64,000 nucleotides of DNA from Escherichia coli (GTDB lineage: Bacteria > Pseudomonadota > Gammaproteobacteria > Enterobacterales > Enterobacteriaceae), in NCBI RefSeq assembly GCF_017348835.2, contig NZ_CP071375.1, one strand, 5' to 3'. Positions 11,578-23,976 of this stretch are shown here, piece by piece. Under the pieces are notes generated by a model. That model saw nothing but the letters and a program-made list of their open reading frames with translations, had not been told where the DNA came from and did no database searches. Position 1 is the first letter of the stretch. Every line of letters starts with the position of its first letter. The translations under genes were made by a program, and so were the position numbers.

Positions 11578-12939
11578 TCAGAAGAACAGTGACGGATCGC
11601 CCGCCCGTTTGGTCAGGCGACCGTTTGCCATAATGCCCATGCTTTCCAGCCAGCGTTCAAACTCCGGTGACGGGCGCAGGTTGAGTAACTGACGCACAGT
11701 GGCGGTATCGTGGAATGCGGTGGTCTGGTAATTGAGCATGATGTCATCACCCAGCGGCATCCCCATGATGTAGTTGCAGCCTGCGGTGGCGAGCAGGATC
11801 ATCAGGTTTTCGTTGAGGTTCTGGTCAGCGTCAGCGTGGTTGGTGTAACAGCAGTCACAGCCCATAGAGATGCCGCTCAGCTTGCCCATAAAGTGATCTT
11901 CTAAGCCCGCACGAATAATCTGGCGGTCATTGTAGAGATACTCCGGCCCAATAAAGCCGACCACGGTGTTGACGATAAACGGATCGTAATGACGCGCCAG
12001 CCCGTAGTTACGCGCTTCCATGGTCACCTGGTCTGCGCCGTAGTTGGCACCCGCCGACAGCGCCGAACCTTGCCCGGTTTCGAAGTAGAGGCAGTTTTCC
12101 CCGGCGATACGGTTGAACTCTGCACCCACTGCGCGCGCTTCGTCGAGCATCGCCAGTTCCACGCCAAACTCTTTCAGCCCTTTTTCACTGCCACAGATAC
12201 TCTGGAAAATCAGCCCGCCTGGTGCGCCACGACGAATCGCTTCGATCTGGGTGGTGACGTGCGCCAGTACGCAGCCCTGAGTTGGGATGTTGAATTTGTC
12301 GATCACGCCATAGATGGTGTCCAGCACGCGGCTTAAGTTTTCCACGTCGTCAGTTACCGGGTTGACGCCGATCACCGCATCGCCCACCCCGAAGGAAAGC
12401 CCTTCGTAGATTTGCGCGGCGATACTTTGCACGTCGTCACGGGTGTCATTTGGCTGCAAACGGGCGCTAAAGGTGCCCGGAATACCGATGGTGGTATTGG
12501 CCTTTTTGATTACCGGCATTTTCTTCGCGCCGTAGATCAGGTCCGCGTTGGAGCAAATCTTCGCTACCGCCGCGACCACTTCCGAGGTCAGCCCTTTGCG
12601 GGTAAAGGCAATGTCGTCCACGCTGGTTTCATCGCTCAGCACATACTCACGCAGTTCGCTGATGCTCCAGTTTTTAATCTGGTTGTAGGCCGTTTCGTTA
12701 ACATCGTCCTGAATCAGCCGCGTCACGCAGTCATCTTCATAGGCAATCACCGGATTATTGCGGATGTCCGCTACGGTCATTTCCGACAACACCTGCTTTG
12801 CTGCCACGCGCTCCTGTGAGCTTGCCGCTGCAACGCCCGCCAGCACATCCCCCGAACGCAGTTCGTTGGCTTTAGCCAGCACCTCTTTTACATCCTTAAA
12901 CTGATATACATTGCCGAACAATGTGGTCTTTAGTTTCAT
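11578..12939 (-). CDS. eutB: Ethanolamine ammonia-lyase large subunit
   Basis: ORF trimmed to ATG 12937-12939 (MKLKTTLFGNVYQF...); 453 aa. Confidence 0.93.
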   Translation of the reverse strand: MKLKTTLFGNVYQFKDVKEVLAKANELRSGDVLAGVAAASSQERVAAKQVLSEMTVADIRNNPVIAYEDDCVTRLIQDDVNETAYNQIKNWSISELREYVLSDETSVDDIAFTRKGLTSEVVAAVAKICSNADLIYGAKKMPVIKKANTTIGIPGTFSARLQPNDTRDDVQSIAAQIYEGLSFGVGDAVIGVNPVTDDVENLSRVLDTIYGVIDKFNIPTQGCVLAHVTTQIEAIRRGAPGGLIFQSICGSEKGLKEFGVELAMLDEARAVGAEFNRIAGENCLYFETGQGSALSAGANYGADQVTMEARNYGLARHYDPFIVNTVVGFIGPEYLYNDRQIIRAGLEDHFMGKLSGISMGCDCCYTNHADADQNLNENLMILLATAGCNYIMGMPLGDDIMLNYQTTAFHDTATVRQLLNLRPSPEFERWLESMGIMANGRLTKRAGDPSLFF

Positions 12940-13050
12940 AAGTCGTTCCCTCAGGAAGAAGTGATGAGTGACATTTTTCACAGCCTTCAAACAATTCTAT
13001 TTCATCGTTAACCCTTGTCCTGTAAGGTAATTACCTTAGTACGCCCGCTA

Positions 13051-13087
13051 TTCATCCTGCCGAACGCAACCGAACGCGCCGGATACA
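13051..13087. repeat. Left att-like imperfect direct repeat (ttcatcctgcc..N17..ccggataca)
   Basis: Shares the 11-bp and 9-bp arms at the same spacing with 22476-22511. Confidence 0.5.
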
Positions 13088-13127
13088 TGAGCGGGGTTAT
13101 CGAGTCGTTAGATCGAGGTATCCGGTT

Positions 13128-14333
13128 TTGAGCAAGACACCACTGACAGCAAAGGCCATAGAGGCCGCACAACCGCAGGACAAGCCCTATAAACTCACCG
13201 ATTCACAGACACCTGGCCTGTTTTTGCTGGTCCATCCCAACGGCAGCAAATACTGGCGATTCCGGTATTGGATAGACAAGAAGGAGCGGTTACAGGCTAT
13301 TGGGGTGTATCCGCTGATTAGCCTCAAGGAAGCCCGCAAACGCGCCACAGAGAGCCGTTTACTGATAGCCCAGGGAATTGACCCAATGGATTTGGCACGC
13401 AAGGAGAAAGCCATTGATGCTCTTAATGCTATCGCCAGTTTTAAAGCTGTAGCAGAAGACTGGATGGCTACCAAGGTGAGCGGATGGAGTGAGAGCTATA
13501 CAAAGCAGGTCAGATCGGCACTAGAGAAAGATGTTTACCCCGTGCTAGGTAAGCGGTCGATAGTGGATATAACGGCCCGTGACGTGCTGGCGTTACTACA
13601 GAAAAAGGAGCGCACCGCACCGGAACAAGCCAGGAAATTACGCCAGCGTATCGGGGAGATCTTCAAATTTGCCGTTATCACTGAACTGGTTAACCGGAAT
13701 CCGGTTGCAGATCTGGATACGGCACTGAAAGCCAGACGCCCAGGCCATAACGCGTGGATACCGATTAATGAAATTCCGGCCTTCTACAAAGCCCTTGAGA
13801 GAGCTGGGAGCGTTCAGATTCAGACGGCAATACTTTTGCTCATCCTCACAGCTTTGAGGACGGCAGAATTGCGCCTGATGCGCTGGGAATGGGTAGATCT
13901 GCAATCGGCAACAATCACATTGCCCGCTGAAGTCATGAAGGCCCGCCGACCGCATGTTGTCCCGCTATCCCGGCAGGCGGTCGAGCTATTACAGGACCAG
14001 TTTACCCGCAGCGGATACAGTGCTTTCGTCTTTCCTGGCCGATTCATGGACAAGCCACTTTCAGCCAGTGCCATCCTTAAAGCCCTGGAGCGTATCGGAT
14101 ACAAGTCGATAGCCACAGGCCACGGCTGGCGGACCACCTTTTCAACGGCGCTTAATGAGTCCGGCAGGTACTCACCAGACTGGATCGAAATCCAACTGGC
14201 CCACGTTCCGAAAGGCGTGCGCGGTGTTTATAACCAGGCGGCCTACCTGAAGCAACGACGGGCCATGATGCAGGATTATAGCGACTGTATTGATTCAATA
14301 CTGGCTGGTGACGGTAATCCACTTGAACCGTGA
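13128..14333 (+). CDS. intZ: P4-family tyrosine site-specific integrase
   Basis: 401-aa ORF; AP2-like N-terminal domain; C-terminal catalytic region with R..HGWR..Y signature (HGWRTTFSTAL, RGVYNQAAY); first island gene beside the left repeat. Confidence 0.88.
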   Translation: MSKTPLTAKAIEAAQPQDKPYKLTDSQTPGLFLLVHPNGSKYWRFRYWIDKKERLQAIGVYPLISLKEARKRATESRLLIAQGIDPMDLARKEKAIDALNAIASFKAVAEDWMATKVSGWSESYTKQVRSALEKDVYPVLGKRSIVDITARDVLALLQKKERTAPEQARKLRQRIGEIFKFAVITELVNRNPVADLDTALKARRPGHNAWIPINEIPAFYKALERAGSVQIQTAILLLILTALRTAELRLMRWEWVDLQSATITLPAEVMKARRPHVVPLSRQAVELLQDQFTRSGYSAFVFPGRFMDKPLSASAILKALERIGYKSIATGHGWRTTFSTALNESGRYSPDWIEIQLAHVPKGVRGVYNQAAYLKQRRAMMQDYSDCIDSILAGDGNPLEP

Positions 14334-14884: not shown

Positions 14885-15400
14885 TCAGGCTGGTTTTTTA
14901 ACTATATACCCCGTATGCCAAGGATTCTGATCGCGCGGCATCGGGTCCGCCTTGATAGACTCATAAAACTTATCAGCCATCTCAGCCACAAACTGTACAG
15001 AGGATTCGAACTCAGCGTTTTTGTGTGCGGGAGGAAACCAGAAGTCTAACACGCCAGCATTTCTATTTTTACATACAGCGTATATAAGATAAGCATCAGA
15101 TGTAGGGGTAACTTTTTCGAAACCACCGGGACCATAACGACCAGTAGACCAGTCATCCCAGCATTGTTCTGTCCCGCTATAGCCGTACTGATTGGTATAA
15201 AGACCAATATTTACATGGACTTTACGTAAGTGGATAGGATATACACACGGGGGTTTATGGAAAAGAGTATCCTTTCCAAAATCAGGATGATGTCCATATC
15301 TCCAATGATAAATAAACGAATCCTTAAAGCTCTTTAATTCATCGTTTGTTTTAAACTTATTATCACTGTAGACCTTACCAATAAATTCATTCTGGACCAT
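14885..15400 (-). CDS. Hypothetical protein (171 aa), distal gene of two-gene island cassette
   Basis: ORF 14885-15403; ATG at 15398-15400; overlaps upstream gene by 14 nt; Trp/Tyr/His-rich, no family recognised. Confidence 0.6.
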   Translation of the reverse strand: MVQNEFIGKVYSDNKFKTNDELKSFKDSFIYHWRYGHHPDFGKDTLFHKPPCVYPIHLRKVHVNIGLYTNQYGYSGTEQCWDDWSTGRYGPGGFEKVTPTSDAYLIYAVCKNRNAGVLDFWFPPAHKNAEFESSVQFVAEMADKFYESIKADPMPRDQNPWHTGYIVKKPA

Positions 15401-15734
15401 CAAAGCTTACACTCTTTAAGCGTTCTTCTCGTGAATCGAATAAATCTTTTGATAAATCACACGCTTGTGTGAACGTCATTTTTTTTACTCGTGGTACAGC
15501 CATAGGCGAGGCCGCATTCATCACTTTGTTTTCTTCGTGATCGAGAGTAGCAGTGTAGCGAAACATGACACTTTTACCGCGCACCAACTGGTATCCTAGT
15601 CGATACGCTAACGCGTCAAGATGCGTCAGACGATTTGTTTTACGCAAGCCAGTCATAGCTTTTGGCTTACGAGTGCGCACAGAAAGGGATTTCCCTTCTC
15701 GCTTAGTCGCAAACAAAGTAACTATTTTTGACAT
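15387..15734 (-). CDS. Hypothetical basic protein (115 aa), proximal gene of two-gene island cassette
   Basis: ATG 15732-15734 preceded by GGAGA RBS; Lys/Arg-rich; stop overlaps start of downstream gene. Confidence 0.55.
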   Translation of the reverse strand: MSKIVTLFATKREGKSLSVRTRKPKAMTGLRKTNRLTHLDALAYRLGYQLVRGKSVMFRYTATLDHEENKVMNAASPMAVPRVKKMTFTQACDLSKDLFDSREERLKSVSFDGPE

Positions 15735-16290
15735 GGTATCTCCTGACATCAATCTGCTAAGGCCATTGTGCCTTGTTTGAATAGTAAACTATTCGCCCAA
15801 TCTACACCAGTGATTTTCTTGACGCCAATAGTAAAGGCAGCATTGCCCACCACAGGCAGACAATGAGACTTCAGATAGCGCACCTTCTATCGCGCACGCG
15901 CTCAATAAAACCAACGACACCGCCATCCTGCCTGACCGATGTTTTTAACCAGCGTATACAGAGAAACAGACAACAGCATGAAATCAGCGTATATCCAGGT
16001 GCAGACGGCACTATCACACAACGCACAGCAGGCTGAGGTGAACACTCAAGCAACTTTATCCCCGCCACCGACCACCGCAAACTATCATGACCGTGCCAAA
16101 TTCAAAAGGAATGGCCCATATAACGCGATGAACACACATAAGCGCTACACTTGCTTACCTGAAAACTTCACAGCGTCACAGCGCGTTTTAGACACGTTAA
16201 AATTAATGAGATTTCATTAAATTTTCACCAGACACCGGAACAAGCCTATAAATCAAAAATGAATTACCGACATGCGCCGCTGGCGTTCAC

Positions 16291-17501: not shown

Positions 17502-17693
17502 ATGAATGATAGCGAATTAATGACGGTGAACGAGGTAGCCGCTTTATTCGGCGTTACCCGTCGGACAATATTCCGGTGGATGAACAAGATTAAAGGCTGG
17601 CCCGTCCCGGTCAGTCCGATTGGCTCAAGAATTAAGTTTATCCGATCTGAGATTTTGGAATTCTATAAAAACAAAGGCGCTCGCCACCAATGA
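17502..17693 (+). CDS. AlpA/Xis-like small DNA-binding regulator (phage transcriptional regulator family)
   Basis: 63-aa ORF with HTH-like segment VNEVAALFGVTRRTIFRWM; GAGGTGA RBS. Confidence 0.65.
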   Translation: MNDSELMTVNEVAALFGVTRRTIFRWMNKIKGWPVPVSPIGSRIKFIRSEILEFYKNKGARHQ

Positions 17694-19638: not shown

Positions 19639-21819
19639 ATGAGTGGAAATCTCGGGACCATATACTACGAGGTCGATGCCCGCACTGGGAAACTTCTTAT
19701 CGCGCAACAGCAGGCGGAAGAGGCGTTCGATCGCATTGAACGAGGAGCGCGGAAGGCTGATAGCGGCGTCAAAAAGTTAAATACGCAGATGACTAAAACA
19801 TCAGCCGCAGTCAAAACCAACCTTTCCCCGGCAATCCGTAACGCATCATACCAGATCGCAGACCTTGCCACTCAATTGCAGATGGGCGGTAATGCGCTTC
19901 AGGCGTTCGCTGTGCAGGGTGCGCAGTTATTAGCTGGCTTTGGCACGATGGGCGCGGTAGCTGGCGCGGTGCTGGCTATCGCTGGCGCTATGGGTGGAAG
20001 CCTGGCACAAGGCGCTGATAGTGCAGCCGGATCGGTTGAGTATCTGGACAAGGCGATCACCAAACTGAACGAGGTCATAGCTGTAAATGAACAGGGCGTG
20101 ACGGTGATGAGTGATAGTTACGCCAGACTTTCTAAGGTTAACGCTGAAGTAGCGAAACAGATGCGGAACATGGCTGAAATTCAGGCAATTGCAGCACTGC
20201 GTGACCTGAAAGAACAGGCAAGCCAGGCACAGGGGGAAATGTCGTCATTCTGGCGCAGCTTGCAGGGTGGTAAAGCTGACGCAGCAGCAGCAGCACAGGC
20301 ACTTGATGATCTTGGAATCACAACCAACGACTACAAAGAGGCGATAGCCATACTGAACGCCAATCAGCCGGATACACAGGCGCAAATGGCAACGCTAGCT
20401 AAGTCCGTGATGTACATAGGCGAGGAATACAACCTGACAAACCAGCAAGCCTACGAGTTCATCCGAGCACTAAATAGGGCCGCGACAACGAGAACGCCGG
20501 AAGCCATGCAGGAACTATCGGGCTTCATGCAGGTATTGCTACAGGACACCGAAAACGGTAACGAGGCATTCCGTGAACTGGCTATCAAATTCGTTGATGC
20601 ACAAACCAAAGGCGCAATGCTGGAAGACCAACTAAACCGACTGAAAGGCGCTATCAGTGACGCAGCCACAGAAGCCAGAAACGCCAATTTTACCACTATG
20701 CTCAACACCGTCGCCGCACGCCTGGCAGCCATTGAGCAAGGTTGGGAGGCAGGCGTTAGGATGCAGATGAAAGCCCAGGGCTACACTGAAGAGCAGATCG
20801 ATGAATATGTGAACATGGAAACGGCGTACCGTGATGCAAAAGCCGCTTTGGACGAGAAGAATAAGGCCGACCGTGAAGCTATTGCGCTATCCAAACGCCA
20901 GGCCGCAGAAGCAGCCCGCAAGGCAAAACAGGAAGAAGCTGAAGCACAACGCAAGGCCAAACAGTTAGCCGCGCAGAAGGAGCAGGCAGGACGCTTTACG
21001 CAGCAAGTAATGACGGAATACCTGACGACCGTAGATCCGGCAACAGGCAAGGCGTTTAACCCTGCCGCACAAGTAGAAATGCAGGAGCAGCAGAAGAAAG
21101 CGGCGCTGGATAAATACAGACAGTTGGGCGTCCTGGATGAACAGCAGTACCAGAACACGCTAACCGCCATCCAGAAAACCGCGTCAATGCGCCGCCAGCA
21201 AATCATCAAAGACGAGGCCGACACGTTATTCAACAATCAGCAACAGTTGATCGGCACATTTGGCGATTTCTTCGGTGAACTGTCTGGAGTCATAGCAGAC
21301 GGTGCAGGTGAGCAAAACGCGGCATATCAAGCGCTATTTGCTGTGCAGAAGGGTTTTGTATTGGCATCAGCAGCTTTAAGCCTTCAGAAAGCGCTTGCTG
21401 AGGCAAACGCCTTGCCTTTCCCGGCTAATCTTCCGGCCTATGCGCAAGCTATGTCAGCAGGCACGCAGATCATTTCAGCTATTCGTGGAATAGCTTTCGG
21501 TGGCGGACGCTACAACGGCGGCGCGGTTGGTGCTGGCAACCTGTACCGCGTGGGTGAACACGGTAAGCCTGAGATATTCAAGGCGAACAATGGCAGCCAG
21601 TACATGATCCCAGGTGATAACGGTCGCGTGATAAGTAATCGTGACATTGGCGGCGGTGGCGGCGTAACAATCAACAGCCCGATCACCATTAACACTACGA
21701 ATGGCTTCAGTGATGAAGACTCAAGGCGTCTTGAGGAAGCGATGAAGCGCGTAGCTATGGGCGTTTGCAGGCAGGAGTCAACCAGACCGGGAGGAATGTT
21801 AGCCCCGCGCCGTCGTTAA
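19639..21819 (+). CDS. Phage tail tape-measure-like protein (lambdoid H-like), orphan
   Basis: 726-aa Ala/Gln-rich coiled-coil ORF; C-terminal GNLYR motif and Gly-rich tail as in lambda H; no neighbouring tail genes. Confidence 0.6.
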   Translation: MSGNLGTIYYEVDARTGKLLIAQQQAEEAFDRIERGARKADSGVKKLNTQMTKTSAAVKTNLSPAIRNASYQIADLATQLQMGGNALQAFAVQGAQLLAGFGTMGAVAGAVLAIAGAMGGSLAQGADSAAGSVEYLDKAITKLNEVIAVNEQGVTVMSDSYARLSKVNAEVAKQMRNMAEIQAIAALRDLKEQASQAQGEMSSFWRSLQGGKADAAAAAQALDDLGITTNDYKEAIAILNANQPDTQAQMATLAKSVMYIGEEYNLTNQQAYEFIRALNRAATTRTPEAMQELSGFMQVLLQDTENGNEAFRELAIKFVDAQTKGAMLEDQLNRLKGAISDAATEARNANFTTMLNTVAARLAAIEQGWEAGVRMQMKAQGYTEEQIDEYVNMETAYRDAKAALDEKNKADREAIALSKRQAAEAARKAKQEEAEAQRKAKQLAAQKEQAGRFTQQVMTEYLTTVDPATGKAFNPAAQVEMQEQQKKAALDKYRQLGVLDEQQYQNTLTAIQKTASMRRQQIIKDEADTLFNNQQQLIGTFGDFFGELSGVIADGAGEQNAAYQALFAVQKGFVLASAALSLQKALAEANALPFPANLPAYAQAMSAGTQIISAIRGIAFGGGRYNGGAVGAGNLYRVGEHGKPEIFKANNGSQYMIPGDNGRVISNRDIGGGGGVTINSPITINTTNGFSDEDSRRLEEAMKRVAMGVCRQESTRPGGMLAPRRR

Positions 21820-22315
21820 CCAAATCCCACGCCAGGGGGATAGACTGGCGGCCTTTCAATTCCGTTGAAACGACGGAATCAAACACCCCGATTCAGGGTA
21901 TTTAAACGTCGCGTTTCACGACATTTATCTAAGTCATTGATTTATATTGTAACTCATAATTGAGTTGCGCCGACCATCCCGCCACAAACGCTCCTACGCA
22001 AAAATTCCCTCACAATTACCCTGCCAATTTTCCAGATTTCACGTATACGCGCCTATATCCCCGCCACCGGATACACGCCCGCTTATACCGGATACTTTTA
22101 TGCCATCATTATTAAATCCATTAATAATCATCAAACCATAATTAGCACAACTTATAATCGAACAAAAAACACACAACATTGATAATGATTTTTTCTGGTT
22201 ATACTTATCTAAAAAAGTGGTATGGGAAGTAACTTATTGTTTTGTAATTACAAATTTATTGCGTGGTCAGATGAACAGACTTGCGCACCTCCCGAAAAAC
22301 ACGCGAAAATCGAAG

Positions 22316-22426
22316 TGTTCTTTCTTTTTTTGTTTTTTATTTTTTTATTTTCTCTTTTTCTTCTCTTTCCGGTTCTCTTCTTTTTCTGGTTTTGGTTTTT
22401 TCCTTTTTTATTTTTATTCTTTCTTC
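22316..22426. repeat. ~110-nt homopyrimidine (T/C-rich) low-complexity tract
   Basis: About 90% pyrimidine on the top strand by eye; no plausible coding frame. Confidence 0.7.
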
Positions 22427-22475
22427 AGGGTTGTGATCAAACACACCAAAACATTTTCGCCACAAAAGCGTTAAT

Positions 22476-22511
22476 TTCATCCTGCCAGACCATTCACTTT
22501 CACCGGATACA
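22476..22511. repeat. Right att-like imperfect direct repeat (ttcatcctgcc..N16..ccggataca)
   Basis: Partner of 13051-13087; a further partial copy (caccggatacac) at 22065-22076. Confidence 0.5.
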
Positions 22512-22572
22512 CAGCCGGATATAATCCCGCTAACACCCAGCCACCCAGCATCACGCCTGATAACTACCGTAT

Positions 22573-23976
22573 TCAGGAAGGAAATGCGAGTGATTTCACC
22601 GTCACCGGCACAACCGATCCGCCAAAAAGAGGCGTACCAATGTCGATATAGTCCCCCGCGCGGACAATCACTTCGTCAATGACTGCCAACGGGAGTTGTT
22701 GTAGCTGTGGGCGCAACAACATGCCCAGAGCTTTACCAAAGTCCTGCCCGGCCACCACCAGCAGGGGATGCGGATTCGGAAAACGCGCGACGAAATCGAC
22801 CAACGCGTTGATGACCGTCAGTACCGCGGCGTAACGCACAGGCAGCGAGGCGGGAAGCGCCAGCACGTACGCGTCAGTTTTGGGATCAAGATCCAGCTGA
22901 ATCAGCGCCTGTTGCCAGGCACTCACCAGATCCGTTTCATCAATCGGGATCGCCACCGGCAAATTGCGCAGCGGCAGTTGTACGCCCTCCAGCCAGATTG
23001 TGCTGCCAGAGAGCGAAAGGGTATGTGCACCCGCGCCAATCACCGTGGCGCGTACGGTTTGCGCCGGAAACTGCACGTTCATCTCACGCAGGCGCGGATG
23101 GTCATGCAGCGCCGTTGCCAGAAGCGGGCCAATATCGGCAAAACAGAACGGGTCGGCGGGCTGGTGGCGATAACATTCGCCCACGCCGCCAGAAAGCGTA
23201 ATGATTTCGGGCGTAACACCTGCGGGCAGCAAACCGGTTTGCATTAATGCCTGCGCGAGCGGCGAAAGCGTTCCGTCAATCACTTCGACAATCAGCTCTG
23301 CCATCCGCCAGGTAACCTGCACCAGCTGCGCGCCGGTCAGCGAACGGGCGTCGGTGCCTGCGCCGAAGCACTCATCCACAATCATCTGCCCCGGTTTATG
23401 AGCGTAAACCACGCGCCCCTGGCTGTCGGTTTCCAGCAGGCGACCACCGACGTTGAGGCAGGCAGTGCCGCTGATTTTTCCGGCATCGAACAGGGCGTAG
23501 TTCGCGGTGCCACCGCCGATGTCGATATTCAGTACCCGACACAGCCGTTGTTCAGAAAGGGTTTGCGCCCCGGCACCGTGACCGGCGATCACGGATTCGA
23601 GGTGCGGCCCGGCGCTGGCGACGACAAAATCGCCCAGCGACTGAGAGAGCGCCATCACCGCCGGGCGAGCATTGCGGGTTTTCGCGCTTTCACCGGTGAT
23701 GATGATGGCACCAGAATCAACGCTTTCCGGCGCAATGCCCGCAGCCTGATATTGCTCTAAAATCAGCGATTTCAGTTCCGCTTCTTTTAAACCACCCTGT
23801 TTATCGACAGGGGTAAAGAACACCGGGCTTTGCCAGCTAATTTCGCGTTTGATGAATTCGTAGCGCGGCACCTGCGACACCGCCGCACGGTTAACCAGTT
23901 CCAGGTGGGAGAAAATCACCTGGGTGGTGGTGGTGCCGATATCGATACCGACGCTCAGTAGCTGGCGAGTGTTCAC
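22573..23976 (-). CDS. eutA: Ethanolamine ammonia-lyase reactivating factor
   Basis: 467-aa ORF; conserved eut order. Confidence 0.92.
   Translation of the reverse strand: MNTRQLLSVGIDIGTTTTQVIFSHLELVNRAAVSQVPRYEFIKREISWQSPVFFTPVDKQGGLKEAELKSLILEQYQAAGIAPESVDSGAIIITGESAKTRNARPAVMALSQSLGDFVVASAGPHLESVIAGHGAGAQTLSEQRLCRVLNIDIGGGTANYALFDAGKISGTACLNVGGRLLETDSQGRVVYAHKPGQMIVDECFGAGTDARSLTGAQLVQVTWRMAELIVEVIDGTLSPLAQALMQTGLLPAGVTPEIITLSGGVGECYRHQPADPFCFADIGPLLATALHDHPRLREMNVQFPAQTVRATVIGAGAHTLSLSGSTIWLEGVQLPLRNLPVAIPIDETDLVSAWQQALIQLDLDPKTDAYVLALPASLPVRYAAVLTVINALVDFVARFPNPHPLLVVAGQDFGKALGMLLRPQLQQLPLAVIDEVIVRAGDYIDIGTPLFGGSVVPVTVKSLAFPS

Follow-up and report, generated by a model that had tools for sequence, protein, structure and literature searches.

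The eut operon of Escherichia coli in the window analyzed here (the whole 64-kb stretch of DNA) is interrupted between eutA and eutB by a CPZ-55-type island of 9,622 bp. Comparison of occupied and empty sites shows that recombination occurred in TCAGGAAG, a short core overlapping the stop codon of eutA, rather than in the pair of bipartite repeats that an earlier note had offered as the duplicated attachment core. Our overall reading, to which we assign a probability of about 0.7, is that the island belongs to the CPZ-55 family and has TCAGGAAG as its core, that the repeats lie in the arms of its attachment sites, and that a motif they contain, CCGGATAYA, serves as the arm-type site of the integrase IntZ, which would also repress its own synthesis. 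The other half of each repeat, the 11-mer TTCATCCTGCC, would be dispensable under this same reading.

Across the left junction, the window matches E. coli strain PE164 with 100% identity; the RefSeq annotation of this strain was mapped to the window with a locus-to-window offset of 1649. This annotation and the list of open reading frames place eutB, encoding the alpha subunit of ethanolamine ammonia-lyase, at 11578-12939 on the minus strand (start codon at 12937-12939), and an intact eutA of 467 amino acids at 22573-23976 on the same strand. The tyrosine integrase gene intZ occupies 13128-14333 on the plus strand and is recognized as such by Pfam, by a PHROG integrase match and by its RefSeq name. 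Its start codon is the TTG at 13128, which is preceded by a GAGG Shine-Dalgarno sequence at 13115-13118. Specifically, the protein carries an N-terminal Arm DNA-binding domain (PF13356, Arm-DNA-bind_3, residues 6-92, E = 1.4e-23), followed toward its C terminus by PF22022 (Phage_int_M, E = 2e-29) and PF00589 (Phage_integrase, E = 6e-22). Further inside the island, positions 17502-17693 of the plus strand encode an AlpA/Vis-like helix-turn-helix protein of 63 amino acids that matches phrog_66, 'excisionase and transcriptional regulator' (E = 1.7e-9), and that is a candidate directionality factor, excisionase or regulator.

The borders of the island were established by searching both junctions against 5,426 complete E. 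coli genomes. In approximately 4,970 island-free genomes, the match to the left query stops at window position 12971, and the match to the right query begins at 22573. The two matches overlap by 21 bp in NZ_OY754377.1, where the empty site reads ...TTTCAT-AAGTCGTTCCC-TCAGGAAG-GAAATGCGAGTGATTTCACC... and the gap between eutA and eutB is 11 nt. The island-free order is eutB-AAGTCGTTCCC-TCAGGAAG-GAAATGCG(eutA), with a single copy of TCAGGAAG. The window has this sequence twice on the plus strand, at 12951-12958 in attL, where homology to island-free genomes ends, and at 22573-22580 in attR, where that homology resumes at 22573. The switch between chromosome and island falls at 12958/12959 on the left and at 22572/22573 on the right, such that attL reads CCC-TCAGGAAG-AAGTGATGAGTGA and attR reads GTAT-TCAGGAAG-GAAATGCGAGTGA. 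The TCA within the attR core is the complement of the TGA stop codon of eutA. When attL, attR and the empty site are compared, the island-side flank AAGTGATGAGTGA (12959-12971, plus strand) partly resembles the attB flank GAAATGCGAGTGA and is a candidate core-type (C') half-site; inspection by eye found no convincing inverted core-type repeats around CAGGAAG.

The same TCAGGAAG is invariant at the ends of six islands of 6.8-10.7 kb, namely the window island and five others, including CPZ-55 of K-12. Islands occupy the eutA/eutB site in 406 of the 5,426 complete genomes (~7.5%), consistent with the published 8%. The 8-bp duplication at CPZ-55 is itself already published (Ramisetty and Sudhakari, PMC6379469), and the excision frequency of CPZ-55 has been reported as <1e-5 per cell (Wang et al., PMC3105296). 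Strain Z142-6 (H30) was considered as a source of a diverged left arm and was set aside as uninformative on this point. Its locus (L008, 13223-15143) bears a deletion across attL that joins a 5'-truncated eutB to a 5'-truncated intZ, thereby fixing the island in place and inactivating eutB.

The letters and positions of the reported repeats are correct. The 11-mer TTCATCCTGCC is found at 13051-13061 and 22476-22486, its only two occurrences in the window, and the 9-mer CCGGATACA follows at 13079-13087 and 22503-22511, after spacers of 17 nt on the left and 16 nt on the right. The small tandem described within the left copy is also real, and corresponds to a 10-bp duplication, CCGAACGCAA/CCGAACGCGC, at 13060-13079. 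The repeats had been placed at both island borders; they are near them, but not at them, since the left repeat is 93-129 bp inward of its junction, and the right repeat is 62-97 bp inward of its own. Both copies do fall within attL and attR in the broad sense of a core with its arms, but neither is the core itself.

Could these 37-bp bipartite repeats nonetheless be a duplicated core, with recombination occurring inside them and the island boundaries set by them? As direct repeats, the copies share one orientation and lie near either end of an island that carries an integrase, and the 11-mer occurs nowhere else in the window. We give this reading next to no credence. The 1-kb empty-site locus (L001) contains zero copies of TTCATCCTGCC, CCGGATACA or CCGGATA, and the boundary of chromosomal homology falls at TCAGGAAG, 93 bp and 62 bp outside the repeats, with island-specific sequence in the intervals. 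Likewise, the 11-mer is not conserved among the islands at the eut site, and a contig that carries attP (L014, discussed below) joins the island ends at CAGGAAG. The earlier note had named two observations that would refute it, an island-free junction lacking the sequence and true boundaries elsewhere; both apply here, with the boundaries at 12951-12958 and 22573-22580, and the repeats are not the core.

A finer view of the crossover is provided by a diverged lineage of islands that occupies the same eut site and whose integrases are 67-69% identical to IntZ. In GCA_025155425.1, which represents this lineage, attL reads CCC-T-CAGGAAG-AAGAACAG (L011) and attR reads CTATT-A-CAGGAAG-GAAATG (L016). 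The bases immediately 5' and 3' of CAGGAAG each stay with their own flank in these two junctions, and strand exchange is thus confined to the 7-bp CAGGAAG. We infer that the overlap in the window is the same CAGGAAG at 12952-12958. Furthermore, contig L014 (3245 bp, from the Logan assembly of SRR19546272) consists of the right island end, CAGGAAG, the left island end and int, which is the arrangement of attP, implying that its junction derives from an excised circle or from a tandem array.

This contig bears on the origin of the 8-bp repeat, for which a transposon-like target duplication has been suggested (PMC6379469). Given that attP in L014 includes CAGGAAG, the element must carry its own copy of the core; site-specific recombination fits this arrangement, and a transposon-like target duplication does not. 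We therefore reject the latter on the basis of the joined island ends with one CAGGAAG, as seen in L014 from the related lineage. Also opposed to target-site duplication are the location of all islands at the same site and the nature of the mobility gene, which is a tyrosine integrase rather than a transposase. In the diverged lineage, the island supplies an A instead of a T before CAGGAAG; as a result, the stop codon of eutA is lost and EutA lengthens from 467 to 491 amino acids (L016, 15574-17049).

The 9-mer half of the repeats is best understood when attP is reconstructed by joining the island ends, with positions given relative to the core. The P arm of the window then holds two tandem sites on the plus strand: P1, CCGGATACA, at 22503-22511 (position -70), which is the 9-mer of the right repeat, and P2, CCGGATATA, at 22515-22523 (position -58), which begins 12 bp after P1. 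On the P' arm, P'1 is the CCGGATACA of the left repeat at 13079-13087 (plus strand, position +128), and P'2 is GGTATCCGG, the inverted form of CCGGATACC, at 13117-13125 (minus strand, ~+167), where it is wedged between the intZ start codon (TTG) and its Shine-Dalgarno sequence (GAGG). In all, the 360 bp of the two arms hold four copies of CCGGATA (at 22503, 22515, 13079 and, inverted, 13119), where the remainder of the window would predict 0.08 (Poisson P = 1.5e-6).

Comparisons among islands show how constant these sites are. In an unbiased count of 6-mers over six E. coli attP reconstructions, CGGATA/ATCCGG was repeated more often than any other word in every one, and its positions were fixed. 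Within these six islands, three of the four sites have an unvarying CCGGATA, and at P1 the entire 9-mer is unchanged; P2 keeps CGGATA throughout, and its first C is a T in 7_33_46A (TCGGATATA). This last island also has an additional inverted copy of the motif where the window has the 11-mer. When ten P' arms are aligned, including three otherwise scrambled ones that belong to integrases 67-69% identical to IntZ, all 14 motif columns are invariant, versus 50 of the 155 other columns (Fisher p = 4.7e-7). Specifically, CCGGATA of P'1 and TATCCGGTT of P'2 are each retained in 10/10 arms.

The P-arm footprint in the diverged lineage is weaker than the P'-arm footprint. GGATACA is present there at the identical distance from the core, and the copies are degenerate (GGGATACA, AGGTATATA). 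The repeated 6-mers of this lineage are ACCGGA and GGATAC, which take the top rank in the observed attP of L014. In the reconstruction from L011 and L016, the top 6-mers are ACCCCG and CACCGC, and the motif-related ACCGGA is fourth with 3 copies.

We conclude that the CCGGATAYA copies are most likely arm-type sites of the integrase, as judged from their sequence conservation and from the Arm DNA-binding domain at the N terminus of IntZ. Of the parts of the diverged integrases, this domain is conserved best (73-76% identity, versus 51-59% for the core-binding domain). One integrase, at 200-1405 of L013, looks mosaic when compared to IntZ of the window, with 93.5% identity in the arm domain, 58% in the core-binding domain and 72% in the catalytic domain. 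A scan of genome contigs with IntZ peptide patterns matched only one locus, in a metagenome-assembled genome, whose protein is 41% identical, which was of no use for footprinting; the arms compared here came from contigs reached through protein homologs.

An alternative is that CCGGATAYA is bound by the AlpA/Vis-like excisionase encoded at 17502-17693, or by a host factor, and acts mainly as an intZ operator. This possibility is unlikely in our estimation, yet it accounts for several observations. The position of P'2 between the Shine-Dalgarno sequence and the intZ start, and that of P'1 ~50 nt upstream, are typical of operators, and an extra motif pair lies inside the island. Set against this are the recurrence of the motif on the two arms, each time at a set distance from the core, as is seen for the arm-type sites of lambda Int, and its persistence next to integrases in which conservation is highest in the arm domain. 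Moreover, CPZ-55 of K-12 keeps the four sites, whereas no helix-turn-helix or AlpA-type gene is annotated in its island. The excisionase sites of lambda that have been mapped so far are located on one arm. Those of KplE1 mapped so far are likewise on one arm (PMC2951348), whereas the motif described here is on two. Excisionases of the P4 and KplE1 types do bind repeated sites in attL (PMC2951348), which speaks for the operator explanation.

The extra pair, CCGGATACAC...ACCGGATAC, is located ~500 bp from the right end (22067-22095, plus strand). It provides two further copies of CCGGATAC, at 22067 and 22088, in the context CACCGGATACAC...TACCGGATAC. The pair is kept in 7_33_46A, is not conserved in K-12, EFF60 and TUM10008, and adjoins a block of ~70 bp (21985-22055) whose conservation extends to each of the five islands compared. 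The region 21900-22200 was also tested as a second, degenerate P arm; its matches were limited to short words and the 12-mer CACCGGATACAC. A scan for the IHF consensus gave a single match with one mismatch, the weak IHF-like site TATCGAGTCGTTA (compared to WATCAANNNNTTR) at 13098-13110 on the plus strand, between P'1 and P'2.

Conservation of the right arm could in principle have a different cause, namely a small open reading frame read out of eutA on the minus strand, in which case the block at 22497-22572 would contain no DNA-binding site. Over the right-arm motif, the minus strand reads TAT-CCG-G, giving YPAVYP. The PGAP annotation of K-12 has an ORF of 41 amino acids there, the frame is open in all island classes, and EutA of the diverged lineage reads through it to reach its 491 amino acids. 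In our reading of the alignment, some differences between K-12 and the window are synonymous. Nevertheless, we judge this explanation to be very improbable. On the P' arm, to which no such ORF applies, the motif is likewise invariant, in its direct and its inverted copy. Moreover, the putative start codon varies, with ATA in the window together with an in-frame TAG, and amino-acid changes are frequent outside the motif.

In comparison to the 9-mer, the 11-mer half of the repeats is poorly maintained. The left TTCATCCTGCC (13051-13061, plus strand) is at position +100 in attP and is lineage-specific, with 2 of its 11 columns invariant among the ten P' arms. The right TTCATCCTGCC (22476-22486, plus strand), at position -97, is outside the conserved P arm, beyond the point at approximately -75 where homology between the right arms of different island classes breaks down. 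It is absent from three of the six E. coli islands (K-12, TUM10008 and 7_33_46A), which have unrelated, terminator-like sequence in its place; neither arm of the window contains a terminator-like site. TUM10008 keeps the left 11-mer and lacks the right one. The matched spacing of the two repeats, to which the earlier note had drawn attention, is likewise not retained: the left spacing in K-12 is 7 nt, 10 bp shorter than that of the window, because the 10-bp unit CCGAACGCAA/CCGAACGCGC is single-copy in K-12.

These observations can be weighed against the idea that the entire 37-bp module is functional, with TTCATCCTGCC binding a second factor 16-17 nt upstream of an arm-type site on each arm. 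The 11-mers, at -97 and +100, are almost symmetric about the core; their spacings to the 9-mer are equal to within 1 nt, and variants of the 11-mer persist in both arms of ECONIH5 and EFF60. In addition, an exact shared word of at least 11 nt between two 180-bp island ends arose in only 1.15% of 2000 dinucleotide shuffles, a P value of ~0.012 that is nominal in that the earlier reader was free to choose any repeat. We find a functional module quite improbable in light of the loss of the right 11-mer from half of the E. coli islands, its location past the breakdown of homology near -75, the retention of the left copy without the right in TUM10008, the 10-bp shift of the left spacing in K-12 and the low invariance of its columns (2/11). 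The 11-mer is also absent from both arms in the diverged lineage. Most likely, the TTCATCCTGCC half and its 16/17-nt spacing reflect chance or a recent, lineage-specific local feature with no required role.

Taken as arm-type sites, the CCGGATAYA copies suggest how the island may move. We propose that IntZ, as a tyrosine integrase of the lambda/P4 type, inserted the 9.6-kb island between eutA and eutB, with its C-terminal domains acting at core-type sites around CAGGAAG and its N-terminal arm domain probably binding CCGGATAYA. By bridging arms and core, IntZ would form an intasome like those of lambda, P4 and KplE1. The arms would present P1 and P2 in tandem on P, and a direct P'1 and an inverted P'2 on P'. 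Integration would leave the P sites in attR and the P' sites in attL, where they lie upstream of intZ.

This arrangement has a possible regulatory consequence. The intZ gene is transcribed away from the core, at a distance of 169 nt, and P'1 is ~50 nt upstream of its start codon. A promoter-like sequence that faces intZ, GTGACA-16-AACAAT (12968-12995, plus strand), was detected by consensus scan, and its use would put both P' sites within the leader of intZ. Given this position in the leader, we propose that IntZ probably represses its own synthesis, by analogy to IntS in KplE1.

A standalone Arm DNA-binding-domain protein of 141 amino acids is encoded adjoining the P arm in the diverged sister islands (L016, 15145-15570; L015, 17217-17642; L014, 728-1153) and is ~38% identical to the N terminus of IntZ. 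A tblastn search of the window for a remnant of this gene matched intZ alone. One can speculate that IntZ blocks its own translation via the inverted P'2, that the 141-aa arm protein competes for or co-occupies the arm sites as a novel type of directionality or immunity factor and that the internal motif pair is part of the same circuit. We regard this more elaborate scheme as doubtful.

Among known elements, CPZ-55 of K-12 (intZ, yffL-yffS) is the closest counterpart to the window island, with the same eutA/eutB site, the same TCAGGAAG at both junctions and all four copies of CCGGATAYA. The left arms are ~93% identical, and the integrases are 85-95% identical depending on the domain. The distal right arms are unrelated beyond approximately -75, and K-12 lacks both the 10-bp duplication and the right 11-mer. 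The window island is longer than CPZ-55 (9.6 kb versus 6.8 kb), and in place of yffL-yffS it carries a YafO-like toxin gene, the gene for the AlpA-like helix-turn-helix protein and an ORF of 726 amino acids.

The KplE1 (CPS-53) prophage of K-12, with IntS and TorI, offers a functional parallel. Its intS promoter overlaps arm-type sites of attL and is subject to negative autoregulation (PMC2951348). As in the window, the integrase gene adjoins attL and is transcribed away from the core, and the gene for the recombination directionality factor, for which the window offers a candidate, is uncoupled from it. A Serratia protein called 'putative prophage CPS-53 integrase' in one database source is ~45% identical to IntZ. 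The two elements differ in that KplE1 is inserted in the tRNA gene argW, whereas the window island is found at the stop codon of a protein-coding gene within an operon. Moreover, the binding sites and autoregulation of KplE1 were shown experimentally, whereas those of the window are deduced from sequence.

Similarities to the lambda and P4 Int systems include a 7-bp overlap, an N-terminal arm-binding domain, a small helix-turn-helix candidate for the excisionase and a repeated, core-unrelated motif on both arms within ~170 bp. The number and orientation of sites differ, as the window has two tandem sites on P together with one direct and one inverted site on P'. The window also differs by having no clear inverted core-type repeat at the overlap and an IHF-like site that is a one-mismatch match only. 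Four elements of a heterobivalent att site are present, namely an adjacent tyrosine integrase, its arm domain, an overlap shared by attB, attP, attL and attR, and a conserved motif on two arms. The recombination module is an ordinary att layout of the lambda/P4/KplE1 type and represents no new biology.

In the library searched, no title or abstract dealt with the att architecture of CPZ-55. The core was already published, whereas three details appear to be new: the assignment of the arm motif, the overlap of 7 bp and the attP-bearing contig. For an island that is common in E. coli, the analysis amends the map by returning the borders to the published TCAGGAAG core, and it argues that the 8-bp repeat reflects the overlap of site-specific recombination (the 7-bp CAGGAAG) as opposed to a transposon-like duplication. 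For the cryptic prophage of K-12, it provides a testable set of four candidate arm sites for IntZ, together with a probable autoregulatory arrangement. With the joints located, PCR assays for excision and for the empty site can be designed, as can clean deletions in the eut operon.

Several features of the island are of separate interest. The YafO-family toxin homolog (172 amino acids) is preceded by an overlapping ORF of 121 amino acids, and together these (window 14885-15752, minus strand) are probably a toxin-antitoxin pair carried as island cargo. The 726-aa ORF (19639-21819) has strong PHROG matches to tail tape-measure families (E = 3e-103), and it is the only recognizable tail or virion gene of the island. 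A search of the island against Rfam returned no known RNA family.

Just inside the right end, at 22320-22430, is a polypyrimidine tract with 78 T residues in 111 nt. The tract is shared with the ECONIH5 and EFF60 islands and with an IS-flanked fragment of plasmid p2018-02-2CC_1 (L009). This plasmid match (H100/L009) was examined and discarded as uninformative on att function, as it is an IS-flanked piece of the T-rich right-end region. On the opposite strand of the tract, PGAP annotates a Lys/Glu-rich ORF of 47 amino acids, whose ATG is inside the right TTCATCCTGCC 11-mer. At the left island end, a promoter-like sequence, AGGACA-16-TAGAAT (12994-13021, minus strand), points outward to eutB. 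This sequence could drive expression of eutBCLKR downstream of the insertion, and its -10 element is not kept in K-12.
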